Part shown: positions 26,690-44,593 of the stretch, in pieces
How the letters are laid out: every line of letters starts with the position of its first letter
How positions within the stretch are numbered: the stretch's first letter is position 1
Source: Nannocystis pusilla
GTDB taxonomy: Bacteria; Myxococcota_A; Polyangia; Nannocystales; Nannocystaceae
Length of the DNA: 64,000 nt
Strand: one strand, 5' to 3'
NCBI RefSeq assembly: GCF_051105105.1
Contig: NZ_CP185339.1
The notes under the pieces: model-generated
What the model was told of the DNA's origin: nothing
The model's database searches: none
What the model saw: only the letters and a program-made list of their open reading frames with translations
Made by a program: the position numbers and the translations under genes

Positions 26690-28109
26690 CTACTTCAGCG
26701 CGCCGCGGTGCACGTGCGGCTCGGGTGGCACGGGAGGCATCCCCGTCTGCGGAGCGACGCGGTATTCGTTGAGGCGGTACTGAATCTTGCGCGGCGAGAT
26801 CCCGAGGATCTTCGCGGCCTTGCTCGTGCTGCCGCCGACGTGCTCGAGCGTCCGCAGGATCGCGTAGCGCTCGATCTCTCGCAGCGACGCGCCCGGGATC
26901 ACGGGCGCCGAGTCGTCGCCGCGCATCTTCGACATCAGCTCGCGCGGCAGGTCGCGCGGCTCGATCTCCGCCCCGCGGGCGAGCACCACCGCCCGCTCGA
27001 CGCTGTTCTCGAGCTGACGGATGTTGCCCGGCCAGTCGCACCCGAGCAGCACCCCGAGCGCTCGCTCGCTGAAGCCGACCATCGGTCGGTGCGCCTGGGC
27101 GGCGAACTGCCGCAGGAAGTGCATCGCCAGCAGCGGGATGTCGTCCCGGCGCTCGCGCAGCGAAGGCATGCGCAGGCTGACCACGTTGAGGCGGTAGTAC
27201 AGGTCCTCGCGCAGCTTGCTGCCCCTGGCCGCGCCGAGGTCCTGGCTGGTCGCCGCGAGCACGCGGACGTCGGCCTGCAGCGGCTCGCTGTCGCCGACGC
27301 GGCAGAACGTCCGGTCTTGCAGGAACCGCAGCAGCGCCGCCTGCACGCCCGCGGGCAGCTCGTCGACGTCGGCGAGGAAGAGCGTGCCGCCGTCGGCCTC
27401 GACGAGCCGGCCCTCGCGCAGCACCGCCTCGCCGTCGCGCACCCCGAACAGCTCGCGGGCGCACGCCTCGTCGGTGAAGCCGCTGCACTGCAGGCTGACG
27501 AACGGGCCGCGGCGGCCGCTCCACTGGTGGATCAGGCGCGCCAGATGTTGCTTGCCGGTGCCGCGCTCGCCGGTGACGAGCACCGACACCGGCGAGTCGG
27601 CGACCTGGCGCGCGAGGCCGAGGAGGTCGCGGAACACCTTCGACTGGCCGATGATGCCGGCGCGCTGGTCGGCGCGTTGACTCTCGAGCGCCGAGCGGAG
27701 GTGCCGGGCCTCGCGTTGCAGCGCCCGGTGTCGCAGGACCCGCTGCAGCACGATGAGCAGCTGCGGCAGGTCGACGGGCTTGCTGAGGTAATCGTCGGCG
27801 CCGAGGTGGAGCGCCTCGACGGCGCCCTCGACCGAGCCGAAGGCAGTCATCACAACGACCGCGACGTTCAGGGTAGAGTTCACGAAGTTTGGATATGAGC
27901 TCGAGGCCGTTGAGGCCGGGCATCTTGACGTCGGTGATGACGACATCCGGCTCCCACTGGTCGATGCGTCCGAGCGCCTTGTATCCGTCGGCGGCGGACT
28001 GGACCTCATAACCTTCCTCGCGCAGCAACTCGCTGAGTGCAGAGCGTGCGCTTGACTCGTCATCGACCACCAAAATTCGGGTCGGCCTGGTCTCTTCAAA
28101 TTTCGTCAT
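26690..28109 (-). CDS. sigma-54-dependent response regulator (NtrC family: REC, AAA+, HTH); frame broken by a GACGTTC heptamer at 27863-27869
   Basis: N-terminal REC domain (ILVVDDESS...VITDVKMPGLNGLELISKLRELYP), then in another frame AVVVMTAFGS...GERGTGKQ...GAFTGA-like ESELFGxxxGAFTGA region...and a C-terminal HTH. Deleting the heptamer gives a continuous ...ELYPAVVVMTAFGS... Confidence 0.8.
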
Positions 28110-28272
28110 AGGCGGTACCTCCGCGGGGGCTTCGCCTACTCTGCGGGCGGAAGATGCGCGGGTGTAATGCATACTTTGCGCGCTCGCGCAAACCCGCGAC
28201 CCCCGCCCACGACGTTTCTCCTATCGTTGCGAGATTTTCATGCCTGGCACGGAAGGCGCACTGGCACAGCGT

Positions 28273-29742
28273 TCAGCCAGTCGGCGCGTCATTCGGCGGC
28301 GGCGCCTCGCCCTCGCGGGGTGCCTCGGCCGGCGCCTGGCCGTCCGGCTGGCCTTCGGGCGGGACCTGACCGTCACCCTGGCCTTGCCCCTGACCGCCCT
28401 CCGGCTGCTGCACTTCCTCCATCGCCGGCGGCAGCGGCGGCGGCGGCACTTGCTCGGCCGGGCGCTCGTCTTGCCGCGCTTCGGGCTCCGGCTCGGGCGG
28501 CGGCGGCTGGGTCGACGGCGTCGGCGGCGGCTCGGCCGGACGCATCTCGGAGTCAGGCGTCTTCGCCGGCTCGCGCTCGGCCCCGCCGGTCTCGCCGGCG
28601 CCGACGCTCGGCAGCTCCGGCCCGTTGTTGCGCTCGAGCGCGTCCTTCTCCTCGGTCTTCTTCGTCGAACGCGACTTGGTGCGCGCCTTCTTGGCCGCCT
28701 CGCGCTCGGCGTTCTTCTGCCGCCGCTCGAGCATCCGCTCCTCGGCGGTCTTGGTCTTGATGCCCATGAAGCGCGGCTTGCCGACGGTGCCGCGCAGCTT
28801 GAAGCCAAGCCAGCCCTCGTCGGGCGGGTCCATCCGCGACGAGGGGCCAGCAGTCTGCACCGCGAAGCGCAGCGTCTCGCTCTTGTCTTGCAGCGCCTGC
28901 GTGACCAGCAGCTTCATCTGGAACGCGAACTCGGACTTCGAGAACGGATCCTTGAGCGGCATGTCGCCGGTGACCTCGAGCTCGATGTCTGCGCTCTTGG
29001 TCTTGAAGTCCTCGACGGTGGCCCGGCCCTCCGCCACCTTCAGCTTGCCGACCAGGGTGCCGAGGTCGATCTCGGGGATGGTGATGCCCTTGGCGGTGAT
29101 GCCCGACGAGCCGGGGATGAACAGCAGCTCCTCGCCGTCGCCGATCGAGCACGAGGCGCACTCGAGCGAGATCGACCCCTCGGCCTTCTCGAACAGGTTC
29201 TCCGGCATCGTCATGTCGACGTGCAGGGCGAACAGGCCGCGCAGCGGGGCGCCAAGCGCCTGCTGCAGCTTCGGCACCGAGCCGAGCGGCAGCTCGGTGA
29301 CCTCGATCTTGATGCTCGACTCGCTGCTGCTGCGCGCGTACTCGGCGTGGATCGGCGCCTCGTCGAGCACGGTGTCGACCTCGACGTTGATGTTGCCGAG
29401 CAGCAGGTACCCGAGGATCGAGAAGTCGACGTTGACCGCGTCGAGCACCATCTGGTGCGGGATCTGGCCCGGGTGCGACGGCGCGTACGTCCACGTGACG
29501 TTGTAGAGCGTCGCGCTGCCCCACGGCCGCACCGACATGTCCTCGATGTCGATGAGGTAGCCGGCCTGGCGCGCCTGGTGGCCGATCCGCCACGCGAGCG
29601 CGCGGGTCGGCAGGCTGATCCAGATGAAGGCGAAGAACACGAACACGGCCAGGAACACCCAGCCGGCGGAGCTGCGGAGGCGCCGCGAGAACAGGCGCAT
29701 GCGGTCGCCGAAGCCGCCGATCGGGGCGGCCGGCGCGACCAT
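28273..29742 (-). CDS. gspN: type II secretion system protein N-like (GspN), with a low-complexity P/E/Q-rich C-terminal tail
   Basis: It sits at the distal end of the gsp cluster. A single N-terminal TM segment (WVFLAVFVFFAFIWISL) is followed by a periplasmic domain. The assignment rests on position and architecture. Confidence 0.55.
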   Translation of the reverse strand: MVAPAAPIGGFGDRMRLFSRRLRSSAGWVFLAVFVFFAFIWISLPTRALAWRIGHQARQAGYLIDIEDMSVRPWGSATLYNVTWTYAPSHPGQIPHQMVLDAVNVDFSILGYLLLGNINVEVDTVLDEAPIHAEYARSSSESSIKIEVTELPLGSVPKLQQALGAPLRGLFALHVDMTMPENLFEKAEGSISLECASCSIGDGEELLFIPGSSGITAKGITIPEIDLGTLVGKLKVAEGRATVEDFKTKSADIELEVTGDMPLKDPFSKSEFAFQMKLLVTQALQDKSETLRFAVQTAGPSSRMDPPDEGWLGFKLRGTVGKPRFMGIKTKTAEERMLERRQKNAEREAAKKARTKSRSTKKTEEKDALERNNGPELPSVGAGETGGAEREPAKTPDSEMRPAEPPPTPSTQPPPPEPEPEARQDERPAEQVPPPPLPPAMEEVQQPEGGQGQGQGDGQVPPEGQPDGQAPAEAPREGEAPPPNDAPTG

Positions 29743-43174: not shown

Positions 43175-43183
43175 CGCTCTCCG

Positions 43184-44593
43184 CTAGTGGATGACCTCGT
43201 CGCTCTCCGACTCGACGCGCGGCGCGGGCTCTGCAGGCTGCGCGCCGGACTCGAGCTTGCGGTAGATCGTGCGGGTGGCGATGCCGAGCAGGTCGGCCGC
43301 CAACCGCTTGTCGCCGCGCGTGAACTTTAGCGTCTCCGTGATCATCCGGCGCTCGACCTCCTCCAGCGGGGTCCCGACCGAGAATGTGATCTGACGCCCA
43401 TGACCGGCCTGCGGGTCGCGCAGCTCCGGCGGCAGGTCGCTCTCGTCGACGAGGCCGCCGCGGCACAGCACGACCGCGCGCTCGACCGCGTTCTCCATCT
43501 CGCGCACGTTGCCGGGCCAGCCGTAGTTGCCCATGCGGTAGAGCGCGGCCTCGCTGAAGCCCGAGACCGGCTTGCCGTGCTTGCCGGCGAAGATGCGCAG
43601 GAAGTGGTCGGCCAGCAGCGGCACGTCCTCGAGGCGGTCGCGGAGCGGGGGCACGCGGATCGGGATGACGTTGATGCGGTAGAAAAGATCCTCGCGGAAG
43701 CGCCCGGCCTTCACTTCCTCGGAGAGGTCGCGGTTGGTGGCGCAGATGAGGCGCACGTCGACCTTCGACAGGCGACCGCCGACCGGCTCGATCTCACCCT
43801 CCTGCAGCGCGCGCAGCAGCTTGACCTGGATGTGCAGCGGGATCTCGCCGATCTCGTCGAGGAACAGGGTGCCGGTGTGCGCCTCGAGGAAGCGACCCTC
43901 GCGGGCCCGCACCGCGCCGGTGAAGGCGCCCTTCTCGTGGCCGAACAGCTCGCTCTCGAGGATCGACTCCGGCAGCGCGGCGCAGTTGGTGGGCACCAGC
44001 GGCCGGGCGGCGCGCGGGCTGTGCTGCTGGATGTAGCGGGCGAACAGCTCCTTGCCGGTGCCGCTCTCGCCGAGCAGCAGCACGGTCGCCGACGAGCCCG
44101 CGGCCTGGCGCGCCATGTCGAGGGCCGCCCGCAGCACCTGGCTGTTGCCGACGATCGGGCGGTTGGTCGCGGCCGCCAGCTGGGCCTTGAGCTCGCGGTT
44201 TTCGGCGACCAGCGCGTGCTTGTCGAGCGCCTTCTGCACCGCGGCGATGATCGCGGCGCGCTTGAGCGGCTTGGAGATGAAGTCGTAGGCGCCCAGCTTC
44301 ATCGCCCCGACGGCGTTCTCGACGGTGCCGTAGGCGGTCATCATGATCACCTCCACCTCGGGCGTCAGCGCCTTGACCGCCTTGAGCAGGTCCTCGCCGG
44401 TCATGCCCGGCATGCGCAGGTCGGTGATCATGACCTGCACCGGCACGCTCCGCAGGATGTCGAGCGCCTGCTGTCCGCTCGAGGCTGTCCGAACGGACAT
44501 GTTCTCCTTGGCCAATACCTTCTGCAGCGCGTCGAGGATGCTGGGCTCGTCGTCGACGACGAGGATGGTCGGGGTACGGGCGGTGCTGGTCAT
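43184..44593 (-). CDS. sigma-54-dependent response regulator (NtrC family)
   Basis: REC domain (ILVVDDEPS...VMITDLRMPGMTG), AAA+ domain (LLGESGTGKE, ESELFGHEKGAFTGA, GWPGNVREMEN) and a C-terminal Fis-type HTH. It lies 10 nt upstream of gspC. Confidence 0.8.
   Translation of the reverse strand: MTSTARTPTILVVDDEPSILDALQKVLAKENMSVRTASSGQQALDILRSVPVQVMITDLRMPGMTGEDLLKAVKALTPEVEVIMMTAYGTVENAVGAMKLGAYDFISKPLKRAAIIAAVQKALDKHALVAENRELKAQLAAATNRPIVGNSQVLRAALDMARQAAGSSATVLLLGESGTGKELFARYIQQHSPRAARPLVPTNCAALPESILESELFGHEKGAFTGAVRAREGRFLEAHTGTLFLDEIGEIPLHIQVKLLRALQEGEIEPVGGRLSKVDVRLICATNRDLSEEVKAGRFREDLFYRINVIPIRVPPLRDRLEDVPLLADHFLRIFAGKHGKPVSGFSEAALYRMGNYGWPGNVREMENAVERAVVLCRGGLVDESDLPPELRDPQAGHGRQITFSVGTPLEEVERRMITETLKFTRGDKRLAADLLGIATRTIYRKLESGAQPAEPAPRVESESDEVIH

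Follow-up and report, generated by a model that had tools for sequence, protein, structure and literature searches.

Contig NZ_CP185339.1 of Nannocystis pusilla (assembly GCF_051105105.1) carries a type II secretion system (T2SS) gene cluster, gspC to gspN, with a gene for an NtrC-family enhancer-binding protein (EBP) at either end. This arrangement raises the question of whether either regulator, here called EBP1 and EBP2, governs the secretion genes, and through which promoter. We examined the cluster (26690-44593, minus strand) within a window of 64,000 nt, the whole stretch of DNA analysed, which has a G+C content of about 70%. The original prediction, made from the same DNA, had described a complete gspC-to-gspN cluster bracketed by two sigma-54 activators, and had taken this to imply sigma-54-dependent control of the secretion system. 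We consider it likely that the region is the housekeeping T2SS operon of a Nannocystis species, belonging to the 'delta/Leptospira' subtype, and that it would form one 13-gene unit, ebp1-gspCDEFGHIJKLMN, placed under sigma-54 control by EBP1.

An NtrC-family regulator at the head of the cluster

The genes were placed by profile searches and by G+C content at codon positions, which gave the minus-strand order EBP1, gspC-D-E-F-G-H-I-J-K-L-M-N and EBP2. The profile matches bore out the gene order and strand that had been claimed, and the junction coordinates agreed with the ATGA overlaps reported at C/D and I/J. EBP1 and gspC were nearly contiguous, as stated, with a computed gap between the EBP1 stop and the gspC start of 9 nt and not 10 nt. 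The gaps within the cluster were all of 41 nt or less, and the sole real spacer was the 163 nt separating gspN from EBP2. We found no intrinsic terminator between gspN and EBP2, nor in any other intergenic interval on the coding strand, and scans with Rfam and for tRNA genes gave no match in the window. The description of a complete gspC-N cluster with an NtrC-family EBP as its first, translationally adjacent gene was upheld.

EBP1 (43184-44593, minus strand) is an NtrC-family response regulator with matches to the REC, Sigma54_activat (227 bits), AAA_lid_14 and HTH_8 profiles. EBP1 and its orthologs retain the receiver aspartate, Walker A (GESGTGKE), the GAFTGA motif, the DE of Walker B (LFLDEI) and the arginine-finger region. 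By its motifs, EBP1 is an intact sigma-54 activator with a phospho-acceptor Asp and a Fis-type helix-turn-helix (HTH).

We compared 29 orthologous loci from Nannocystaceae and Polyangia, centred on gspF, of which 26 were informative at the EBP1 position. An EBP1 ortholog (65-99% identity) lay directly 5′ of gspC in all 26, including those of Plesiocystis and Enhygromyxa. The conservation of EBP1 exceeded that of every Gsp protein; in Plesiocystis, EBP1 was 79% identical, compared to 41% for gspC. Nine further contexts, found through EBPs 50-63% identical to EBP1, came from metagenome-assembled genomes of other Myxococcota with coarse taxonomy, and the order (kinase)-EBP-gspC-gspD-gspE was present in seven of them, while the other two differed. 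Some of the distant loci, L033 and L040 among them, carry a HAMP-HisKA kinase gene just upstream of the EBP gene. Judged by these gene orders, a regulator heads the cluster before gspC as a rule in Nannocystaceae, and commonly so in other Myxococcota. The adjacency of an EBP gene and gspC, which had been called not canonical, is indeed unusual when set against gamma-proteobacterial T2SS clusters, but it is the normal state in the family to which this genome belongs and in most of the other contexts.

A conserved sigma-54-type promoter candidate upstream of EBP1

The ATG of EBP1 lies at 44593. Alignment A1 comprises the 180-nt stretches that precede EBP1 in 21 loci of several genera, and has a mean column identity of 47%. 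Within this alignment, GG at 44633-44632 and TGC at 44622-44620 were invariant, and the distance from GG to GC was exactly 10 nt in all 21 loci. The corresponding element in the window, AGGACCCCGAATTGCA (44619-44634, minus strand), reads AGGACC-N5-TTGCA, with the -24 GG at 44633-44632 and the -12 GC at 44621-44620. The spacer bases varied even among Nannocystis species, whereas GG and TTGC were constant. The pattern GG-N8-[TC]TGC[TA] gave one match in the interval from -90 to +25 (115 nt) in 24 of the 26 loci, compared to 0.05 expected from the loci themselves, and GG-N8-TTGCW matched the window at just four places, the promoter candidate being one. Furthermore, TTGCA ends 25-26 nt upstream of the ATG, a distance that suits a -12 box but is too short for a -35 box. 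We therefore read the conserved GG-N10-GC element as a putative sigma-54-type promoter of ebp1, with a transcription start predicted near 44608.

Only with respect to the strict form TGGCAC-N5-TTGC was it correct to state that EBP1 has no convincing sigma-54 promoter upstream; the conserved GG-N10-GC element came to light through cross-species alignment, and had been overlooked because its -24 half is degenerate (AGGACC). We ruled out another candidate, CTGGCTCCAGGACTTGCC (about 44674-44657), whose GG-GC spacing is 11 nt and which is not conserved. Matches to GG-N8-CTGCT in the 3′ end of EBP1 were not counted, as they are codons of the HTH motif AADLLG. No separate gspC promoter was detectable in Nannocystaceae.

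Conserved palindromes lie about 70-100 nt upstream of the promoter candidate. Putative upstream activating sequence (UAS) site 1 is the palindrome TGCCATTTTGGCA (TGnCA-N3-TGnCA; 44719-44731, minus strand), which coincides with invariant columns of A1 (TGnCA-N3-TGnC at 44731-44720) and has this single match in the 64-kb window, compared to 0.01 expected. Putative UAS site 2, GAC-N4-TGACA-N8-TGACA (44684-44708, minus strand), is situated 30 nt downstream of site 1. Its GAC (44708-44706) and one TGnCA (44701-44697) are likewise invariant in A1, and in other Nannocystaceae the same block takes the form GTGACAG-N7-CTGTCAC. Between the UAS sites and the promoter candidate lies an A+T-rich tract, ccttagaatcattcgcttttcacc / ttagaatcattcgctttt (44637-44660, minus strand), with an AAT block partly conserved in A1 (consensus TGnAATTA). 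The tract bears a loose resemblance to an IHF site, and may be IHF-like or serve to bend the DNA. Taken together, the UAS palindromes, the A+T-rich tract and the predicted promoter present the textbook layout of an EBP-dependent promoter.

Corresponding elements in distant Myxococcota

Six non-Nannocystaceae loci have a spacer of 70-160 nt between the EBP gene and gspC. In all six, TGGCC[CT]-N5-TTGCT was found before gspC at -31 to -41, together with a perfect TGCCA-N3-TGGCA palindrome at -108 to -121; across these loci the two patterns have background densities of 7.5e-4 and 2.3e-4 per nt. The EBP gene of the same six loci was itself preceded by two palindromes 38-40 nt apart and by TGGCxx-N5-TTGA[AT]. 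The presence of a promoter of gspC's own, accompanied by the same palindrome, argues that the secretion operon itself is controlled by sigma-54 and an EBP. Sigma-54 control of the secretion system, which the original prediction had implied from gene adjacency, is favoured by these gspC promoters as well as by the conserved element upstream of EBP1. Compared with these lineages, Nannocystaceae appear to have joined the EBP and gsp units in one operon that a single promoter serves.

A further distant locus, L041 (3001-6779), separates the regulator from the secretion genes. Its EBP has 52% identity with P0244, which heads the query alignment, and the palindrome TGCCAAAGTGGCA lies upstream of the gene; no T2SS is adjacent, and a RecD2-like helicase follows the EBP in place of gspC. 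Since the palindrome is kept upstream of an EBP gene without a T2SS, the motif seems to follow the regulator, and it is mainly because the motif travels with the regulator that we think the adjacent EBP binds it.

The GG...TTGC block might alternatively belong to a sigma-70 promoter, an operator or a leader, with the operon transcribed by sigma-70. The -24 half is indeed weak in the window, and a sigma-70-like match, TTGGCA-18-GACAAT, overlaps the upstream palindromes. However, such matches number one observed to 0.7 expected, the exact GG-N10-GC register is held constant while the spacer sequence is free, and the end of TTGCA falls too near the ATG for a -35 box. In the distant loci, moreover, the elements come near to consensus, with TGGCC[CT]-N5-TTGCT before gspC and TGGCAC-N5-TTGAA before the EBP gene. 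We regard transcription by sigma-70 as very unlikely, and continue with the putative sigma-54-type promoter.

A model for control by EBP1 and the points that weigh against it

We propose that an unlinked histidine kinase would phosphorylate EBP1, which would then oligomerise on the upstream palindromes and, through ATP hydrolysis, open the sigma-54 holoenzyme complex. EBP1 would in this way drive transcription of ebp1 and of the whole secretion machinery, an arrangement amounting to positive autoregulation. In other Myxococcota, the same parts would be divided between a promoter before the EBP gene and a second before gspC, with the same palindrome at both.

A counterpart by position is found in Myxococcus xanthus, where published locus tags place nla4 (MXAN_2516) two genes away from gspD (MXAN_2514), with gspK as MXAN_2505; nla19 is MXAN_1078. 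Nla4 is listed as an orphan response regulator. The gspD gene of M. xanthus is essential, as is its single T2SS, and the myxobacterial T2SS carries MYXO-CTERM surface proteins and slime. The sigma-54 system is described as unusually important for vegetative growth of M. xanthus. No named Myxococcus protein was present among the 120 best EBP1 matches (all of at least 60% identity), nor in the GspC, profile, representative or cluster searches.

Several points weigh against control of this operon by EBP1 through sigma-54. A strict search for TGGCAC-N5-TTGC, allowing up to two mismatches, returned nothing useful upstream of EBP1; the -24 half AGGACC departs from TGGCAC at three of six positions, and its score against a consensus-weighted matrix is poor. 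The promoters of the distant EBP genes carry TTGA at -12, compared to the almost universal TTGC. Neither an rpoN gene nor a partner kinase (HisKA/HATPase) was found among the window ORFs scanned. We infer the action of the EBP1 protein at the promoter from co-occurrence only. Finally, EBP1 is the probable counterpart of M. xanthus Nla4 by the adjacency of locus tags to the gsp cluster only, and Nla4 has been described with effects on growth, on (p)ppGpp and the stringent response, and on development, not on secretion; our search of the literature returned no report linking nla4 to secretion.

In an alternative reading, the promoter is real but is fired by a different EBP, with EBP1 a mere co-transcribed neighbour that controls unrelated genes of the stringent response or development, as reported for Nla4. 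Papers on Nla4 deal with growth, ppGpp, relA and nla6 and not with secretion, and myxobacteria have about 50 EBPs that regulate each other's genes, both of which would suit such a reading. Nevertheless, in six independent lineages the same palindrome stands before gspC as well as before the EBP gene, and it also precedes an EBP gene without an adjacent T2SS. EBP1 is in addition more conserved than any Gsp protein, as in Plesiocystis, and is separated from the rest of the operon by 9 nt. We consider a different activator unlikely, and favour EBP1 as the regulator that would act at its own promoter.

EBP2 is probably not a sigma-54 activator

EBP2 (26690-28109, minus strand) is an NtrC-family response regulator with a degenerate AAA+ domain, and its Pfam matches extend over two reading frames owing to an inserted A at 27868; with the insertion repaired, it comprises 472 aa. 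The GAFTGA motif was missing from all 13 EBP2 orthologs as a result of a four-residue deletion (FGVRDG---EAV-LREGR). In Nannocystis, Walker B has AD for DE (LFLADV), and the distant orthologs have DE, DA or DD. Since no EBP2 ortholog has GAFTGA, EBP2 is probably not a sigma-54 activator, and the picture of a cluster bracketed by two such activators fails at this end.

The two regulators also differ in how regularly they accompany the cluster. EBP2 follows gspN in 13 loci of several genera and is missing from 12 clusters, including those of Plesiocystis and Enhygromyxa, where unrelated genes stand instead; the expectation of flanking regulators in orthologous clusters was thus borne out for EBP1, in 26 of 26 loci, and for EBP2 in part. 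The spacer between gspN and EBP2 contains the palindrome TTTGCGCG-AG-CGCGCAAA (28175-28192, minus strand), which shows conservation within Nannocystis; comparable palindromes (GCGCA-N5-TGCGC, GTGCAAAATTTGCAC) were found in more distant loci that bear EBP2. No second copy of the EBP2 palindrome was found in the window, and the 163 nt upstream of EBP2 contained no conserved GG-N10-GC. The palindrome is likely the operator of a separate EBP2 transcription unit, and EBP2, judged by its distribution and control region, is best read as a separate, lineage-specific unit.

The model favoured at the outset, in which EBP1 and EBP2 are both sigma-54 activators and jointly control the secretion system, draws on the matches of both regulators to Sigma54_activat and HTH_8 and on the recurrence of EBP2 after gspN in several genera. 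Set against this are the loss of GAFTGA in every ortholog, the altered Walker B of Nannocystis, the absence of EBP2 from 12 orthologous clusters, and a control region of its own, whose palindrome differs and which lacks a conserved -24/-12 element. Joint control is highly improbable on these grounds.

EBP2 resembles NtrX, VpsR and Rhodobacter capsulatus NtrC in combining REC, an AAA+-like domain and a Fis-type HTH without the sigma-54-contact loop. These three proteins lack GAFTGA and are not known to activate sigma-54. NtrX and VpsR were among the structural relatives of EBP2 in the PDB, and the NtrX model ranked high in NCBIfam, although the scores were far below the equivalog cutoffs (NtrX, 283 bits compared to 600), which places EBP2 outside those families. 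The most likely role of EBP2 is that of a conventional response regulator that binds DNA, in the manner of NtrX or VpsR, and the annotation of proteins of the EBP2 type as sigma-54 activators is probably wrong.

Two observations concern the surroundings of this gene. An 830-aa ORF without a Pfam match (24126-26618, minus strand) begins 71 nt past the EBP2 stop on the same strand, and could share a transcript with EBP2. In L022 (19288-21222) and L028 (9614-11329), which both lack EBP2, gspN is followed by a convergent gene that has a terminal receiver domain and may encode a hybrid kinase.

The frameshifts in gspD and EBP2

The frameshifts that had been reported as lesions in gspD and in the distal EBP gene are present in the sequence, each as a 1-nt insertion, but they are private to this assembly. 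An extra C at 40748 (gag-C-ctc) interrupts gspD and the extra A at 27868 (cctga-A-cgtc) interrupts EBP2, each duplicating a neighbouring base. Both insertions, and a third at 45834, were absent from L001, L002 and L004, relatives whose nucleotide identity is 95-97%. Another 1-nt insertion, at 45261, was private compared to L004, in a stretch that aligns poorly with L001 and L002. Across 21 kb compared with L004 (N. sp. RBIL2; 97.2% nucleotide identity), all four private single-base indels were insertions that duplicate the adjacent base. Apart from the extra base, amino-acid identity to the orthologs of L001-L006 was 94-100% for gspD and 93-99% for EBP2, and both genes were in a single frame in L002-L006. 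The locus L001 (N. pusilla Na p29) carries different frameshifts, in EBP1, gspD, gspH and gspL, with indels at 4300, 7380, 8065, 12567 and 17110 of that locus, which suggests that long-read Nannocystis assemblies are generally prone to indels.

Were the frameshifts genuine, they would add to the points against an EBP1-controlled housekeeping operon, for the secretin gene and EBP2 would be pseudogenes, and the secretion system would be decaying or rescued by another secretin. The given sequence does, after all, contain the extra bases, both are outside long homopolymers, and myxobacteria have paralogous secretins. Yet the insertions are private among close relatives and follow the pattern of base duplication shared by all four private indels, the rest of gspD and EBP2 has no sign of decay at these amino-acid identities, gspD is essential in M. 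xanthus, and the sister assembly L001 has other frameshifts in other genes of the same cluster. We judge genuine pseudogenisation quite unlikely. By comparison with the relatives, the two frameshifts are most likely single-base insertion errors of the assembly, and they should not be taken as biology.

The insertions at 45834 and 45261 fall inside 44686-46573 (minus strand), a gene for a low-complexity protein located between an acyl-CoA dehydrogenase gene and EBP1, with a weak N6_N4 DNA-methylase match and split over two frames. Elsewhere in the window, an AMP-binding enzyme (56327-57742, minus strand) matches its profile only from position 151 on, and may be truncated at the N-terminus by another frameshift. 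PrmA and RsmE-type methyltransferase domains occur in one stop-to-stop ORF on the plus strand (14037-15716) that overlaps an open frame of 2262 codons with very high G+C (14852-21637); these may be adjacent genes without a stop between them, or the product of another frameshift.

The Gsp proteins of the cluster

GspC is the protein that separates T2SS from type IV pilus systems. In the window, gspC (42119-43174; this and the following genes are all on the minus strand) scored 235 bits against NF041515 GspC_delta (cutoff 150), and encodes a delta-type protein with a C-terminal PDZ domain. The secretin gene gspD (39707-42122) has N0, Secretin_N and Secretin domains, distributed over two reading frames by the inserted C at 40748. 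The ATPase gene gspE (37840-39696) matched T2SSE at 460 bits together with MshEN, and the platform protein gene gspF (36595-37833) matched T2SSF at 210 bits with the domain in two copies; its product was 97-99% identical in amino acids to those of N. pusilla, N. exedens, N. punicea and N. sp. RBIL2.

The pseudopilin genes follow. The major pseudopilin gene gspG (36122-36568) matched N_methyl and T2SSG. The minor pseudopilin genes gspH (35088-36080), gspI (34322-35086) and gspJ (33600-34325) each matched N_methyl and had weak matches to the gspH, gspI and T2SSJ profiles, respectively. The product of gspK (32217-33587) matched T2SSK_1st, and scored 74 bits with NF037980, under the cutoff of 130.

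At the gspL position (30422-32176), the encoded protein has a PilM/FtsA-like actin-fold N-terminal domain (PilM_2, E = 2.6e-20) and scored 103 bits with TIGR01175 pilM, under its cutoff; it had no match to the T2SSL profile. The gspM-position gene (29817-30420) is assigned by its position and a single transmembrane helix only, and its protein had zero Pfam or NCBIfam matches. Both genes are positionally conserved across all loci, and the one at the gspM position is kept there at 33-98% identity. The last gene, gspN (28273-29880), is of the Leptospira/delta type (TIGR04411, 180 bits compared to a cutoff of 50) and has a low-complexity C-terminal tail.

The GspD domains, GspE and GspF, GspG with the minor pseudopilins, GspC and GspN together identify the cluster as a T2SS, and as a machine it is of the usual myxobacterial kind. 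No gene for the prepilin peptidase GspO/PilD was found within 26690-44593, which is compatible with T2SS membership, as this peptidase is commonly encoded away from the cluster. In one Polyangia metagenome-assembled genome (L027, 3709-5811), a tandem gspC pair lies between the EBP gene and gspD, and its two members are 50% and 48% identical to the gspC of the window.

Comparison with known systems

The Nannocystis cluster shares with the gamma-proteobacterial Gsp/Pul/Eps systems the order C-D-E-F-G-H-I-J-K-L-M-N, the secretin, the ATPase, the platform protein and five pseudopilins. It differs from them in that GspC and GspN fit delta/Leptospira models, the protein at the L position is PilM-like and the one at the M position has no profile match. 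Moreover, gspO, gspA, gspB and gspS are absent from the cluster, and a regulator is built into the operon. T2SS regulation is usually ascribed to quorum sensing, phosphate or global regulators, and we know of no previous description of an EBP-led, sigma-54-driven T2SS operon.

The likeness to nla4 of M. xanthus is one of position, as both genes encode an orphan NtrC-like regulator beside gspC-gspD with no adjacent kinase gene. It is drawn from locus tags, and Nla4 is known as a regulator of growth, the stringent response and development. A broader extension, speculative and rather improbable in our view, is that across Myxococcota the single growth-essential T2SS is transcribed from sigma-54 promoters fired by an Nla4-type EBP at the head of the cluster. 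If this were true, the severe growth defect of M. xanthus nla4 mutants would be largely a defect in expression of the secretion system, either direct or through polarity on gspC-N, and the long-unexplained requirement for sigma-54 in vegetative growth of M. xanthus would have the same cause.

The nearest parallels in control come from other envelope machines. PilS/PilR for the type IV pilin, VasH for type VI secretion and HrpR/HrpS for type III secretion are cases in which an NtrC-family EBP is encoded with the genes of an envelope machine and activates them via sigma-54, and the TGTC/GACA-type half-sites found here resemble those reported for PilR. Compared with PilR, VasH and HrpRS, the target here would be a T2SS operon in its entirety, headed by the EBP cistron. 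The comparative map of promoters and enhancers makes the adjacency of EBP and gsp genes experimentally addressable, and an operon-borne EBP combined with phylum-wide sigma-54 promoters would represent a distinct logic of T2SS control, parallel to those of PilR and VasH.

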